A program made the position numbers and the translations under genes. Below the pieces are notes generated by a model. That model was not told the origin of the DNA and made no database searches. It worked only from the letters and a program-made list of their open reading frames with translations. From positions 1 to 50,818 of the forward strand of contig JBDRCN010000031.1 of the NCBI GenBank assembly GCA_043821705.1: a DNA stretch of 50,818 nucleotides, given 5' to 3'. The stretch comes from Candidatus Omnitrophota bacterium. GTDB lineage: Bacteria > Omnitrophota > Gorgyraeia > Gorgyraeales > Gorgyraeaceae. Each line of letters starts with the position of its first letter. Within the stretch, counting starts at the first letter, position 1. Below, in pieces: positions 9,430-50,818 of this stretch.

Positions 9430-10113
9430 ATGAACAAAGTATTTAAAACGGTTAAGGCATTATCTATTTTACTACTTGTAGTAGGGATCGGGACAGTAGC
9501 AGTAGTGTTTTACTTAAAGTTCTCCAGCGAGAATAAAATATTACATCAGATCATATCCAGGCTAGAGTCTGATTCCAGGATCGCTGAAGTCCTTGTGACA
9601 GGGGTTAATTACAATGAGGCCACAGGAAAGACGATTACTACTATTAAATTCTTGGAATATGATTCTTTAGGGGCCCCTCTGAAACCCAGGTATTTTACTT
9701 TTTCAGGTAATATTATCCAGTTTCAGTCTTTGGTGATACGTTTTGATGATAGGTACATCAGGATGGGCGATAAGCTTAGAGGAAAAAGCATTTATCTATT
9801 CTGGAAAGTATTTATGTTAGACGGGAAAAATACTGAAGAATATGAGATAACCAGTGTGAATAGTATCCCAGAAGGTTATAAATTGAATACTACAGAACAT
9901 GCTTTTGAGAACAATATATGGGAAAAGTTCTGGGATTATGCGTTAAAGGAAAAGGAAAAAGGCAGGCTAGGTATTAAAAATGCCCAGATCGAAGCCCCTG
10001 GCCTGATGTTTGTTCCTGGGATACTCTATTCGATAAAGATAGAGCACGATGGCGGCATGAGAATAGATACTAATAAATTGCCTGAGATCTTAAAAGGCGA
10101 GACAATACTATAA
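9430..10113 (+). CDS. Membrane-anchored hypothetical protein
   Basis: 227-aa ORF with one N-terminal TM helix; no recognised motif. Confidence 0.75.
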   Translation: MNKVFKTVKALSILLLVVGIGTVAVVFYLKFSSENKILHQIISRLESDSRIAEVLVTGVNYNEATGKTITTIKFLEYDSLGAPLKPRYFTFSGNIIQFQSLVIRFDDRYIRMGDKLRGKSIYLFWKVFMLDGKNTEEYEITSVNSIPEGYKLNTTEHAFENNIWEKFWDYALKEKEKGRLGIKNAQIEAPGLMFVPGILYSIKIEHDGGMRIDTNKLPEILKGETIL

Positions 10114-10149
10114 AACTATTTATACTACTTTTGAAATGCGAGGGGCATT

Positions 10150-10731
10150 ATGATAAATAATATTTTTTTAGCATTTATCCCTATCTTTGTAGCAGTCGAC
10201 GCAATAGGCGTCTTGCCGCTATTCATATCTTTTACAGAAGGACTTACTAGAGAAGAAAGAAAAAACATAGTAAAGCAGTCACTCGTAACAGCGCTTATGG
10301 TAGCGTTTTGCTTTATATTCCTTGGAAAATTCATCTTCAAGGTCTTAGGTATAATGGTAGAGGACTTTATGATAGCTGGAGGAGCTATCCTGTTTTGCAT
10401 AGCGATAATCGATATAATAAATCCCAATAAGAAGCGTCGACTTCCCTCTAAAGAATTGGGTTTTGTACCATTAGGTACGCCTTTAATAGTAGGGCCAGCT
10501 GTCCTTACGACATCCTTGATGATAATCCCTAGTTATGGCATCTACGCTACTTTAATATCAATAGTGGCCAATGTTCTTATAGCAGGGCTAGTGTTTTTAT
10601 TCTCTGAGAACCTGATAAAGGTATTTGGCGAAGCAGGCACAAAGGCTTTATCAAAGATAATGAGCCTCTTACTGGCTGCTATAGCAGTTATGATGATCAG
10701 AAAAGGGCTTTTTTTGATACTGGGATTATAG
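10150..10731 (+). CDS. MarC family integral membrane protein
   Basis: FIPIFVAVDAIG, F.IAGG..LF, VPLGTPLIVGPA, K.MSLLLAAIAV. Confidence 0.9.
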   Translation: MINNIFLAFIPIFVAVDAIGVLPLFISFTEGLTREERKNIVKQSLVTALMVAFCFIFLGKFIFKVLGIMVEDFMIAGGAILFCIAIIDIINPNKKRRLPSKELGFVPLGTPLIVGPAVLTTSLMIIPSYGIYATLISIVANVLIAGLVFLFSENLIKVFGEAGTKALSKIMSLLLAAIAVMMIRKGLFLILGL

Positions 10732-48268: not shown

Positions 48269-48314
48269 TTGACATAGGAAAAATATTGTGTTATTATTTT
48301 TACAAAAGTAACAC
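48269..48314 (+). promoter_or_regulatory. Sigma70 promoter overlapped by a NikR-type operator
   Basis: TTGACA(48269)-17 bp-TATTAT(48292); GTGTTAT-N13-GTAACAC at 48288-48314. Confidence 0.75.
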
Positions 48315-48329
48315 AATGAAAGGGTTTTT

Positions 48330-48440
48330 ATGTCAGAATTAGTCAGATTTGGTGTGTCTTTAGAAAAAGATCTTTTAAGAAATTTCGACAAGCACATCAA
48401 AGATAAAAAATATCAAAACCGCTCTGAGGCCAGGGGATAA
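48330..48440 (+). pseudogene. nikR: Truncated nikR (ribbon-helix-helix part only)
   Basis: MSELVRFGVSLEKDLLRNFDKHIKDKKYQNRSEARG*; breaks off within the NRSEAIRD motif. Confidence 0.85.
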
Positions 48441-48570
48441 AAGATAAAAGGGGACGTGCGAAAAAGGGACACTTTGGTAGGGGAGGGGTAAACCGGTACA
48501 AGAAAGACCTATGGAAAAAGGGTTATTGCCTAAAAAGGATGCCCTGGTAGGGTAGGGGAGAGGAAGAAAA

Positions 48571-48617
48571 GTTGCAAGCCACAAGACACAAGTCACATGT
48601 CATGTTGCAGGTCGCAT
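48571..48617 (+). repeat. Degenerate heptamer array (consensus about GTCRCAA)
   Basis: gttgcaa gccacaa gacacaa gtcacat gtcat gttgcag gtcgcat. Confidence 0.6.
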
Positions 48618-48706
48618 GGCATACACCACAAAATCAAAAAAATCCAAAATAATTTGAAAGAAAATGACCCCCTCCTGTGTCTTATATGGTAGAGGGGAGG
48701 TGTATT

Positions 48707-49225
48707 ATGCCAAAACAGATAGTAGAATCAGAATTTATTGATAATAAGATATTCTTCATAAGGGGGCAAAAGGTGATGCTGGATAGGGATCTGGCAATGC
48801 TTTATAGGGTAGAGACAAAAGTGTTGATCCAAGCAGTAAAGCGCAACATTGAACGCTTTCCAGAAGACTTTATGTTTCAGTTAACCTGGGAGGAGGTTAA
48901 TTCTTCAAGGTCACAAATTGTGACCTTGAAACATGGTCACAATATCAAATATTTACCTTATGCTTTTACTGAACAAGGTGTAGCTATGCTTTCAGGAGTT
49001 CTGCATAGTAAACGTGCCATTGAGGTAAATATTGCTATTATGCGGGCATTTGTAAGGATAAAGCAGGTCCTTTCTACACATAAAGAGCTTGCTGAAAAAC
49101 TAAGGGAATTAGAAAAAGAAGTCGGAAGAAATAGCAAGCTTATTATAGAAATATTTGAGATAATTAAGAAGCTTACACAGTCGCCTATGCCACCACCAAA
49201 GCGTCAGATAGGATTTCATAGTTAA
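48707..49225 (+). CDS. ORF6N domain DNA-binding protein, copy 1
   Basis: IRGQKVMLDRDLA.LY.VET, VKRN.ERFPEDFMFQLT, PYAFTEQGVAMLS, A.EVNIAIMRAFV, KRQIGF; RBS before ATG 48707. Confidence 0.92.
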   Translation: MPKQIVESEFIDNKIFFIRGQKVMLDRDLAMLYRVETKVLIQAVKRNIERFPEDFMFQLTWEEVNSSRSQIVTLKHGHNIKYLPYAFTEQGVAMLSGVLHSKRAIEVNIAIMRAFVRIKQVLSTHKELAEKLRELEKEVGRNSKLIIEIFEIIKKLTQSPMPPPKRQIGFHS

Positions 49226-49234
49226 TATAGGGTT

Positions 49235-49416
49235 TTTTGTTTTGTTGCCCTATCAGAGATAGGGCGGTTAAAAGATTTAAGGATTCGATGGAGCCGAGGC
49301 TTTAAGATCCCGGATCTTGCCGGAATATACTAGCATGTTTGAGATCCGGGATCTGGGTTGGTGAAGAGTTATAGCGCAGCATTCGCTATAAAAAGCGTAG
49401 TTTGGTGGTCTTTGGC
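49235..49416. repeat. Dispersed intergenic repeat, copy 5, containing an extra inverted repeat (49305-49354)
   Basis: TTTGTTGCCCTATC-AGA-GATAGGGC GGTTAAAAGATTT...GTTGGTGAAGAG...AAAAGCGTAGTTTGGTGGTCTTTGGC. Confidence 0.75.
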
Positions 49417-49521
49417 TTAGTTAATCTTATCGGTATCACAATCTCAAAGTAAAAAAATATAAAATAATTTGAAAGAAAATAGCCCCCTCCTGTGTCATAT
49501 ATAGTAGAAGGGGGGTGGATT

Positions 49522-50040
49522 ATGGCTAAAAAAGGTCTGATTCCATCAGAAACTATCGAGAATAGGATATTTTTGATAAGAGGTCAAAAGGTCATGCTAG
49601 ATAGGGATCTGGCAGAATTGTATGAAGTGTCTACAAAGCGTTTAAATGAGCAAGTCAGAAGAAACATCGATAGGTTTCCGGGCGACTTCATGTTTAGACT
49701 GACAAAGGCAGAAAAAGATGAGGTGGTCGCAATTTGCGACCACCTAAAGCCCCTTAAATTCTCACCACAATTACCTTATGCATTTACAGAGCATGGTATT
49801 TTAATGCTTTCATCAGTATTAAATAGTGACCGTGCTGTTCAGGTAAATATATTTATTATGAGGATTTTTGTTAAGATAAGGCATGTTCTGGCTAACAATA
49901 AGCAATTAGCCGATAAATTAAAAGAGCTTGAAATAAGACTTGATAAACATGACGAAGAGATAACAGTTATTCTTGATGCAATCAACAAGCTCATGAGAAA
50001 GCCAGAAAAACTTAAACGCCAGATAGGTTTTCATAATTAA
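49522..50040 (+). CDS. ORF6N domain DNA-binding protein, copy 2
   Basis: IRGQKVMLDRDLAELYEV, VRRN.DRFP.DFMF.LT, PYAFTEHG..MLSSVL, KRQIGF; start at ATG 49522. Confidence 0.92.
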   Translation: MAKKGLIPSETIENRIFLIRGQKVMLDRDLAELYEVSTKRLNEQVRRNIDRFPGDFMFRLTKAEKDEVVAICDHLKPLKFSPQLPYAFTEHGILMLSSVLNSDRAVQVNIFIMRIFVKIRHVLANNKQLADKLKELEIRLDKHDEEITVILDAINKLMRKPEKLKRQIGFHN

Positions 50041-50065
50041 ATAAAAATCTTAGTTTAGAAACTTA

Positions 50066-50084
50066 AGGTTCCAATTTGGAACCT
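50066..50084. repeat. Orphan palindrome of the ORF6N-internal type
   Basis: AGGTTCCAA-T-TTGGAACCT. Confidence 0.8.
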
Positions 50085-50089
50085 GCAGC

Positions 50090-50118
50090 TTGACAAACCA
50101 GCCTCCATAGTCTATAAT
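50090..50118 (+). promoter_or_regulatory. Consensus sigma70 promoter
   Basis: TTGACA-17 bp-TATAAT. Confidence 0.85.
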
Positions 50119-50180
50119 AGTTTTATAACCGAATATCAGTCCCGAGTTAAGAAGGGGTAAATCCCGGACTTAAATAAAGT

Positions 50181-50222
50181 AAAACCTTCACGAGTGTAAT
50201 CTTGTGAGGGTTTTTTGTTTTT
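50181..50222 (+). terminator. Leader terminator downstream of the 50090 promoter
   Basis: AAAACCTTCACGAG-TGTAAT-CTTGTGAGGGTTTT followed by TTGTTTTT. Confidence 0.8.
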
Positions 50223-50328
50223 AAGGGGCTCTCAAGTCGTACGTTTGGAAGGGGTCACTGCGACTATAAACAATTAAAACCTTCTTTTGTTAAACCAGCC
50301 TTGCCAAAGGCTAACAAAAGGGGGTAGT

Positions 50329-50818
50329 ATGGTGGTAATCAAGTTGATCAAAGTATTAGTTATAATTTCAATATTCCTTGCTGCATTTTTCCCGATTTAT
50401 ATTAATGTGTCTGTGTTTGCTCTAGAGCAAGTAGGTTTTCAGAAAACATCAGATAATACTTTCTTAAATTTTGAAGAAGTTATTTCAGAATATTCTGAAC
50501 GTAGAGAGATCTTTGAGATGATAGAAGACGGCGAGAAGCAGCTAGAACTTCACCCCTCTAGGACCTATCTATACGAAGGCCTTGCGCTATTATACGACAG
50601 AGTAGAAATGTACGACAATGTCTTGAGATGACATTAAATCAGCTTGAATGCTCCCAGGACAGTAGCCCTGTAAATCTCGGTATCATATATGCCAATATCG
50701 CCAGATGCTATCTCAGTCTAAATAAGCTTGATGAAGCTAAGACCGCGATCGATAGATCCTTGGAATATTCCCCTGAAAACCCCATAAACAGGACTCACCT
50801 GGTTGACTACTATATCCG
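50329..50818 (+). pseudogene. Exported TPR protein with a frameshift near 50620 (runs off the window)
   Basis: Signal/TM, then LYEGLALLYDRVEMYDN; the other frame continues LEMTLNQLEC...IIYANIARCYLSLNKLDEAKTAIDRSLEYSPENP with no stop to the window end. Confidence 0.7.

Follow-up and report, generated by a model that had tools for sequence, protein, structure and literature searches.

A palindrome conserved within ORF6N coding sequences as a candidate operator for the protein that the gene encodes

The gene for the lambda O protein carries the ori iterons, which are dyad-symmetric sites, within its own coding sequence and in a tolerant part of the protein, and site and specificity vary together among its relatives. 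In the auxiliary operators lac O2 and gal OI, and in roadblock repression, an operator also lies inside a coding region, sometimes acting together with a promoter-proximal copy, and the Rickettsia palindromic elements are found in frame inside protein-coding sequence. Here we describe a DNA palindrome that lies within the coding sequence of two adjacent genes, g1 and g2, for proteins with the ORF6N domain (PF10543). The genes are located in the same orientation at the end of a stretch of 50,818 nucleotides from a Candidatus Omnitrophota bacterium (contig JBDRCN010000031.1 of assembly GCA_043821705.1), which was analyzed as a whole and is referred to as the window. The palindrome is general across the ORF6N family rather than confined to g1 and g2, its base pairs vary together with residues of a predicted recognition helix, and we propose that it could serve as an operator for the protein whose gene contains it.

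The ORF6N genes, like lambda O and similar initiator genes, encode a DNA-binding protein with dyad sites in its own coding sequence, but they usually have one site instead of four iterons and an AT-rich region, they have no replication context, and the ORF6N-type site is perfectly symmetric, conserved across phyla and read in three frames. An origin of the lambda O/ori type was rejected because the window has one copy per gene and no replication genes nearby, and tandem copies occur in only a minority of relatives. The lac O2 and gal OI operators differ in that they lie in the target gene and not in the regulator's own, are imperfect and are not conserved in a family; further, g1 and g2 are without a promoter copy. 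Repetitive extragenic palindromic (REP) elements and the associated transposases (RAYTs) are described, in passages of PMC8266576, as short palindromes with covarying stems clustered around one gene family; REPs are, however, extragenic, imperfect and present in hundreds of copies, whereas here there are 3 copies (two of them coding) and no HUH transposase. Perfect inverted repeats in the coding sequence of Nematomorpha mitochondrial genes are described in part of PMC6649704. In these genes and those with Rickettsia elements, as here, a DNA symmetry shapes the peptide, but many unrelated genes per genome are affected, whereas the ORF6N palindrome occupies one homologous place in many genomes and is tied to a predicted DNA-reading helix. 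In the literature searched, which lay mainly outside subscription journals, we found neither an earlier description of the ORF6N coding palindrome nor a DNA target for ORF6N.

Palindromes in g1, g2 and the ORF6N family

The genes and their palindromes are located as follows.

48707 to 49225, plus strand: ORF6N gene g1, 172 amino acids, reading the palindrome in frame class 0 as SSRSQIVTLK
49522 to 50040, plus strand: ORF6N gene g2, 172 amino acids, reading the palindrome in frame class 1 as EVVAICDHL
48904 to 48930, no strand: palindrome 1, TTCAAGGTCACAA-A-TTGTGACCTTGAA, 13-nt arms 100% complementary with 1 nt between
within 48904 to 48930, no strand: core of palindrome 1, GGTCACAA-A-TTGTGACC, centre at 48917
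49721 to 49745, no strand: palindrome 2, AGGTGGTCGCAA-T-TTGCGACCACCT, 12-nt arms 100% complementary with 1 nt between
within 49721 to 49745, no strand: core of palindrome 2, GGTCGCAA-T-TTGCGACC, centre at 49733

Both proteins passed the curated cut-off of PF10543 (27.8 bits), with E-values of 3.5e-35 (120.6 bits) for g1 and 6.5e-31 (106.9 bits) for g2, and both cover model positions 1-86. They are 52% identical to each other and are the only PF10543 matches in their own genome (1.41 Mb, 38% G+C, 91% complete); their best homologues are from Omnitrophota, as named by the sources. We note that g1 also matches the PHROG anti-repressor family 4792 (E 1.3e-30) and that the PADLOC PDC-S05 model PDLC04856 matches both proteins almost full length (E 8.1e-63 for g1 and 7.3e-64 for g2).

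The original prediction, made from the letters of the window alone, had described exact 13-1-13 and 12-1-12 palindromes, and these were confirmed from the sequence and an inverted-repeat listing. As it had also stated, both lie at the same position, between FMFxLT and PYAFTE, the centre base being codon position 1 in g1 and codon position 2 in g2. Counted from the ATG, the centre bases have offsets of 210 and 211, respectively. A nucleotide alignment of the two genes brings the cores into register only if 2-nt gaps are opened, in g2 ahead of the palindrome and in g1 behind it, and in palindrome 2 the codons mirror each other (GTG/CAC, GTC/GAC and GCA/TGC). The 1.41-Mb genome contains 36 distinct perfect palindromes (arms of 12 or more and a loop no longer than 5), of which two lie at homologous places in g1 and g2, and 0 of 100 synonymous shuffles of either gene reached the observed arm length (null mean 4.5 for both); chance is thus excluded. 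Folded as single-stranded DNA, palindromes 1 and 2 reach -11.9 kcal/mol (z -5.3) and -13.5 kcal/mol (z -6.9), respectively, with 0 of 200 shuffles as good. A terminator scan found no sense-strand intrinsic terminator at either palindrome and flagged palindrome 2 on the minus strand alone.

ORF6N loci were fetched through protein patterns outside the palindrome segment (RFPxDFMF, PYAFTEQG and others), as the best 80 per scan of genome contigs (595 confirmed relatives), metagenome contigs (583) and, twice, viral contigs (209 and 221). A recognizable FMFxLT...PYAFTE segment was held by 259 of 317 loci (58 gave no pattern match), which yielded 192 unique segment DNAs. Genes with fewer than 11 of 15 pairs (9 of 192) were excluded from the frame, pair-profile and helix tables, and rows with short flanks were excluded from the trees (2 of 192), from the correlation of N- and C-terminal parts and from the helix tables. 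The genes sampled come from many phyla, and ORF6N genes also occur on viral contigs and plasmids. Within the phylum, 101 of the 151 genomes searched contain PF10543, the maximum being 8 matches in one genome, and tblastn of a phage collection returned 5 unannotated records.

Palindromicity in many ORF6N coding sequences had been proposed as a check on the two window genes, and it lies well above that of shuffled sequences. The mean perfect arm in the 192 unique genes is 10.3 (median 12), compared with 4.6 in within-gene synonymous shuffles; in 165 of 192, the best centre is flanked by 12 or more Watson-Crick pairs out of 15; and 0 of 100 synonymous shuffles equal the observed pair number in 148 of 192 genes, with at least 10 shuffles doing so in 11 of 192. 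An independent sample, taken with the Pfam hidden Markov model only, comprised 29 loci, each from a different genome of the phylum, and the match interval was usable in 28 of these. Perfect arms reached 11 or more in 22 of the 28, and five of the other six were 1-2 mismatches from perfect; one locus of this sample, L327, has a weak 8-of-10 copy only. When pairing was followed outward from the centre, positions 1-13 were paired in 75-100% of genes, positions 14-15 in ~55%, and background was reached from position 16 on. The edge after position 13 defines the element as 27 bp, and its arm length is fixed at 13, with the total length unchanged even where the innermost pairs fail. In a gapless alignment of 148 distinct sequences (1924 cells), 94.4% of cells are paired, compared with 73.4% when shuffled (0 of 500 as high) and 30-43% with slid partners. 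Both sides have changed at 10 of 13 pairs, double-change cells number 366 where 86 are expected, and the centre CAA-W-TTG is invariant or nearly so. Neighbouring paralogues had identical palindromes in 0 of 4 loci (there were 4 such loci only). Among the sequencing runs listed for this DNA there was no RNA run, and in the two DNA runs (0.09 and 0.07 of sampled words), the aligned reads were from other organisms' ORF6N genes and covered conserved parts only.

The palindrome is read in more than one frame by these genes, the centre falling at codon position 1 in 167 and at position 2 in 25 of the 192. Class 0 peptides are of the type (N)L[RK]SQ[IF][VA]T[SL], and in class 1 the codons mirror one by one (GAG GTG GTC GCA A.T TGC GAC CAC CTC, giving E V V A N/I C D H L); the Ile/Phe alternation of class 0 and the Asn/Ile alternation of class 1 arise because the centre is A or T. 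The cores TCACAA, TCGCAA and TGCCAA were found in both frames. Codon choice at the site is strongly biased: Gln is encoded by CAA in 146 cases and by CAG in 8 (CAA fraction elsewhere in the same genes, 0.47), Ile by ATT in 73, ATC in 2 and ATA in 0 (ATT fraction elsewhere, 0.36), and Phe by TTT in 56 and TTC in 0; the bias is unchanged in 76 GC-rich genes. The claim of the original prediction that selection acts on the nucleic acid is therefore strongly supported, by codon choice, by compensatory change at most pairs, by the use of several frames and by non-coding copies of the same sequence family. In an AlphaFold2 (AF2) model, the palindrome encodes residues 66-75 of g1, that is, a helix end and the start of the least confident stretch (residues 71-80, predicted local distance difference test (pLDDT) 54), in a segment between strands 56-58 and 85-88. 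The encoded peptide is a passenger, in that this loosely predicted segment tolerates any frame, duplications and module exchange, and on the model it may be the wing of a winged helix.

Helix residues that vary with the base pairs

We screened protein columns outside the palindrome peptide against the variable base pairs by mutual information. Columns 27, 28, 31 and 32 of the N-terminal part, which are residues 38, 39, 42 and 43 of g1, stood out, with up to 1.19 bits for base pair 4 (95% permutation threshold, 0.20 bits). The residues on one face of a predicted helix covary almost deterministically with base pairs 4, 5, 7 and 8. Residue 42 predicts pair 4: of 104 genes with Gln, 99 have A·T; all 48 with Glu have G·C; and 24 of the 25 with Arg or Lys have C·G. 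Overall, 171 of 181 genes follow this rule; within frame class 1, it holds for Glu with G in 16 of 16 and for Gln with A in 3 of 4. Residue 39 tracks the same pair (Arg with G·C, 52 of 52; Val with A·T, 49 of 49). Lys goes with G·C at pairs 7 and 8, a Lys at residue 38 being accompanied by G at pair 7 in 100 of 102 genes. The usual protein-DNA contact preferences are Gln for adenine, Glu for cytosine and Arg or Lys for guanine, and the covariation agrees with these.

The corresponding helices of the window genes are as follows.

48815 to 48847, plus strand: predicted recognition helix of g1, T37-N47, TKVLIQAVKRN (AF2 helix 37-46)
49633 to 49665, plus strand: predicted recognition helix of g2, T38-N48, TKRLNEQVRRN (from the contingency tables)

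Both genes obey the code, TKVLIQAVKRN occurring with GGTCACAA and TKRLNEQVRRN with GGTCGCAA. The covarying residues of g1 are K38, V39, Q42 and A43, with Q42 accompanying A·T at pair 4; in g2, R40 and E43 accompany G·C at this pair. The original prediction had noticed that the two cores differ by a compensatory pair. This difference is thus matched in the proteins by Q42 to E and V39 to R.

The AF2 model (mean pLDDT 80) contains a beta-beta-helix-helix unit, and residues 38, 39, 42 and 43 all lie on the same face of its second helix. A sequence search of the PDB with a 40-row profile gave coiled coils only (E of at least 0.2), and Foldseek against the PDB gave nothing at E up to 0.001, the best hits being MarR-type winged helices (E 0.4) and SKI/Dachshund domains; because neither match is significant, the fold label is a provisional one. 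On a tree built without the helix columns, which is poorly resolved, the residue and base states change 30-42 times, and the independent-pair tests on the tree found 3, 3 and 2 pairs.

Copies outside the genes and what the palindrome may do

Further palindromic sequences occur at the g1/g2 locus.

50062 to 50088, no strand: palindrome 3, non-coding, CTTAAGGTTCCAA-T-TTGGAACCTGCAG, centre at 50075
48935 to 48943, plus strand: half-site GGTCACAAT from the inverted-repeat listing, just past palindrome 1 and read in the third frame as GHN
49305 to 49354, no strand: two short palindromes, AGATCCCGGATCT and AGATCCGGGATCT, which are mutual reverse complements

Neither palindrome 3 nor the half-site was part of the original prediction. 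Palindrome 3 is a perfect 9-1-9 repeat at 50066-50084 with 8 of 10 outer pairs matching; it lies 22-48 nt past the g2 stop, has no ORF6N coding context around it and, by the helix/base code, its sequence GGTTCCAA would need a Lys-type helix, which no gene of this genome provides. The outer arms of the pair at 49305-49354, TTTAAGATC and TTTGAGATC, resemble the outer arms of the ORF6N family, and the two jointly fold at -14.5 kcal/mol (z -4.6); judged by their sequence, they may be family copies with the centre deleted. Of 91 CAAWTTG sites in the genome, only 3 have flanks that are complementary at 8 or more of 10 positions, and all of these are at the g1/g2 locus. In five other genomes (20 Mb), the 13-letter core occurs 7 times (1-3 per genome), 6 times in ORF6N genes and once as an imperfect chance match, and a reversed control pattern gave 0 matches. 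The palindrome is essentially confined to these genes and their immediate surroundings. Dispersed palindromes of the REP/RAYT type or of the type of miniature inverted-repeat transposable elements were also considered and are ruled out by the finding of 3 strong copies, at one locus, in 1.41 Mb.

Copies outside the gene are also seen at other loci, where 22 of 47 precede the intragenic one by 200-350 bp, which places them 25-130 nt ahead of the start codon, and 7 of 47 lie 300-400 bp downstream of it, just past the stop codon; no upstream copy precedes g1 or g2. In all, 112 copies fall outside recognized segments: 60 are in long open reading frames, 21 have module-like coding remnants and 31 are bare palindromes. 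The counts of non-coding copies upstream and downstream given above are therefore upper bounds, because the segment pattern missed genes (the 60 of 112 in long reading frames). The non-coding copies retain the same sequence family, including the invariant centre, and copies are internally perfect while neighbouring copies differ from each other. One locus on contig G052:C11 (L347, positions 1150-2450) has two neighbouring ORF6N genes and five extra palindromes, making 7 palindromes in 1.2 kb, and in the flanks of the extra ones remnants of other module types can be read (ELVTNCDRFKSLK, NWRSQIVTSN, LMFQFGTSSW, SLRCQIGISS and SRSQIVTLKRGQHSQYMP).

The original prediction had offered three options for the palindrome, namely a self-encoded operator, a hairpin for recombination or nicking and a swappable cassette. 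The operator is the best supported of these, as helix residues covary with pairs 4, 5, 7 and 8, and, judging from sequence and predicted structure, we think it probable that the 27-bp palindrome is a self-encoded duplex operator bound by the product of its own gene. The features seen that are expected of an operator are dyad symmetry with fixed half-site spacing and the covariation of site and residue (171 of 181 genes, 3 independent pairs); the covariation suggests that each protein binds its own gene. We infer what such binding might achieve as follows. A dimer would read the palindrome symmetrically through the second helix of the ORF6N helix-turn-helix, the g1 helix (V39 and Q42) pairing with GGTCACAA and the g2 helix (R40 and E43) with GGTCGCAA. 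The protein would bind the body of its own gene, probably in cis while being made, and the result could be negative feedback, by roadblock or by looping to extra copies near promoters, or the marking of its own DNA molecule.

Several points weigh against an operator. Natural operators are rarely so perfectly symmetric. The fold assignment depends on the AF2 model, and the well-supported branches of the tree give only 3 independent pairs, all concordant (p 0.25), so that the association of helix and base could partly reflect three old subfamilies. Further, the intragenic copy is much more constant than any promoter copy, which g1 and g2 lack altogether. Non-coding copies often differ at pair 4 from the palindrome of the adjoining gene (L004, L013, L054, L066, L068 and L077), which indicates that they are not simply extra sites for the neighbouring protein, and the copies outside recognized segments include the 21 remnants of other module types and the 60 in reading frames that the pattern missed. 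A bolder idea, which we put forward tentatively and think rather unlikely, is that proteins of ORF6N and of a second family, RhuM (PF13310), are "self-addressed", in that the site read by the recognition helix lies within the sequence for the protein's own variable segment, possibly the wing. Protein and target would then travel as a unit, matched by a residue-to-base code, and the newly made protein would bind in cis; paralogues and horizontal copies would be kept orthogonal by different helix/palindrome pairs, and module exchange and frame changes would create new pairs.

Four other explanations must be set against an operator. If the palindrome were a hairpin in the mRNA that controls translation, processing or stability, or a site for an RNA-binding form of the protein, its stem, which does covary strongly around a conserved apex, would fit, as would the copies just before starts and just after stops, where transcription is possible, and the Arg/Gly-rich segments that follow the palindrome in many proteins. 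We nevertheless consider such a hairpin quite improbable. G·U pairs account for just 29 of 1924 cells, a rarity that speaks for DNA and not RNA, and class 0 mismatches are more often A·C (56) than G·T (22). Pairs 1 and 2, beside the 1-nt centre, are kept (75% and 98%) though unable to form in a hairpin, and the covariation with helix-turn-helix residues, which follows DNA base preferences, suits the reading of a duplex better. No Rfam family matches: a scan of 48300-50300 with E up to 10 gave chance-level matches only, with no E-value below 0.5 and every score falling far short of its gathering score. The palindrome could also be functionless, an old quasi-palindrome that perpetuates itself by template switching in a tolerant protein segment, as each copy is internally perfect while its neighbours differ, the symmetry reaches right to the centre, and the model is least confident in the part that holds the peptide. 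This we judge to be very unlikely because the arm is fixed at 13 bp with a sharp edge, the invariant centre is kept in non-coding copies too, the element persists across many phyla and in RhuM, the extra copies have preferred positions, and the helix/base covariation would be unexplained. An origin, nick or packaging site of a mobile element, recognized as a hairpin by another enzyme such as a relaxase, a rolling-circle Rep or a transposase, might also be envisaged: conserved apices and covarying stems are usual in the hairpins of such sites, ORF6N genes occur on viral contigs and plasmids, and the window pair lies beside a truncated nikR (see below). Its probability appears to us slighter still: no gene for such an enzyme adjoins g1 or g2, the element is found in many phyla as a single copy within a chromosomal gene, the RhuM copies are part of type I restriction operons, and such a site makes no link to the helix residues. 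For the nicking site of the original prediction we found no evidence.

A better case can be made for a hairpin or cruciform that promotes recombination and drives the exchange and duplication of modules, as a diversifying cassette in a candidate defence family, with the helix covariation as a secondary matter. Frame class on a 190-row flank tree takes 17 changes, compared with 19-22 for shuffled labels, and class 1 is not one clade on the flanks (12 changes among 67 rows), a single class 1 clade being rejected by the approximately unbiased (AU) test on these rows (log-likelihood difference 173, p 3.7e-44). The pairwise identities of the N and C parts correlate at 0.27, compared with 0.62 between the two C halves. 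Together, these results indicate that the middle module is mosaic among gene backbones. Proteins of some relatives, a minority, have 2-3 tandem module copies; intergenic arrays of module-like remnants occur, as at L347; and some gene fragments (L168, L230 and L030) start or stop at the palindrome. However, in the two recent mosaic pairs that were aligned there are no breakpoints at the palindrome, similarity switching 120-140 nt downstream, at a domain border. A hairpin hot spot also leaves the CAA-W-TTG centre and the link of pair 4 to the helix unexplained, 27 bp is short for cleavage by a hairpin nuclease, and genomes with one ORF6N gene still have perfect palindromes. The mosaicism of the module is real, and the palindrome is only a possible cause of it; a recombination-promoting role is, in our opinion, unlikely. 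The swappable cassette of the original prediction is partly supported, in that the module ignores the phylogeny of its flanks, although the two recent breakpoints that could be mapped lie elsewhere. These mosaic pairs, both from viral contigs (L258 with L278, and L287 with L297), flip in DNA identity from ~72% to 99% or from 94% to unrelated, and the flips, at the border of the ORF6N domain and the C-terminal coiled coil, show at the sequence level recent recombination of domains.

Relatives, neighbourhood and significance

RhuM genes, too, have a coding palindrome. Such genes turned up in 32 of 121 genomes from the phylum, as well as on plasmids of Vibrio, Pseudomonas, Bacteroides, Arcobacter, Roseomonas, Methylocystis and Pseudonocardia. 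The RhuM palindrome has the form AACT...AGTT or CAGT...ACTG with arms of 10-15 and lies at a place equivalent to that of the ORF6N palindrome, directly behind the KHxxNIF helix. In 28 of 35 unique genes the arms reach 10 or more (null 5.0), with 0 of 100 shuffles as good in 19 of 35, and the palindrome was found in 7 of 8 plasmid genes fetched. In 20 of 23 genes its centre falls on codon position 3, so that, with positions 1 and 2 in ORF6N, all three frames are used across the two families. On plasmids of Arcobacter, Roseomonas and Methylocystis (L388, L389 and L391), a type I restriction-modification operon includes the RhuM gene, which follows and overlaps hsdM or a DNA methyltransferase gene, with hsdS next in L389 and L391. 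E. coli genomes searched with RhuM DNA gave no match. According to Table 2 of PMC9881135, RhuM is enriched beside programmed-inversion targets (odds ratio 14.4). In the passages on PDC-S05 of 10.1101/2024.09.26.614923, a RhuM-domain member of PDC-S05 is reported to cut T7 and T5 plating ~1000-fold in E. coli B, and a palindrome is not mentioned there; as described, this member is a protein different from g1 and g2, which are ORF6N only. The likeness to PDC-S05 lies in the full-length matches of g1 and g2 to its models and in the analogous coding palindrome of RhuM genes.

An extension to DinD is only partial on present sequences. The dinD gene of E. coli K-12 (L393, gene 9761-10585) has a 15-2-15 inverted repeat at 9934-9965, with 14 of 15 pairs, in codons 58-69 and just after the predicted DNA-binding helix. 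Chondrinema dinD has a perfect 14-0-14 repeat at the same place, and Thiothrix dinD has a perfect 13-2-13 repeat upstream of the gene. These two, 1 intragenic and 1 upstream, are the only palindromes among 8 further dinD homologues, the other 6 having none at the thresholds used.

The surroundings of g1 and g2 contain two further features of note.

48631 to 48715, plus strand: 85-nt leader before g1, a direct repeat whose second copy, 85% identical, lies at 49446-49530 before g2
50090 to 50118, plus strand: sigma-70-type promoter, TTGACA, 17 nt, TATAAT, with 12 of 12 consensus positions

The leader contains CCCCCTCC and, ~20 nt on, GAGGGG, which overlaps the ribosome-binding site; the two could pair and so hide this site. 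The right end of palindrome 3 is 1 nt from the -35 hexamer of the promoter. Downstream of the promoter, a hairpin like that of an intrinsic terminator and a T-run occupy 50181-50214, and the whole arrangement (50090-50224) outlines an RNA or leader of ~95 nt before a gene encoding a tetratricopeptide repeat (TPR)-like protein; Rfam gave only weak matches for this stretch (L10_leader, E 0.51; His_leader, E 0.84). A TGA at ~50629-50631 breaks the TPR-like reading frame (50287-50816), which resumes in a frame overlapping by 4 nt; it is either a broken gene or two genes. Upstream of the pair, a 36-amino acid open frame at 48330-48440 matches just the first 34 positions of NikR (NF003381, E 9e-11) and then stops. 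The remainder of nikR was not seen, so that the ORF6N pair may lie in or next to a disrupted nikR.

ORF6N is among the commonest uncharacterized DNA-binding domains, and our analysis proposes a target for it, the gene itself, together with a recognition code that can be tested. The finding is relevant to candidate phage-defence genes (PDC-S05) and to the RhuM genes that lie within type I restriction loci, and, if the proteins are self-addressed, the palindrome in candidate defence genes could be a means of self-marking or a dosage tripwire on the carrier DNA. Further, the best-conserved "protein motifs" LRSQIVTS and EVVANCDHL, and IRKFRI or CAKFAH in RhuM, are translations of a palindrome in three frames and exist as family motifs because they translate it. 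Overall, the family offers a clean natural case in which a nucleic acid signal dominates the evolution of a protein sequence.

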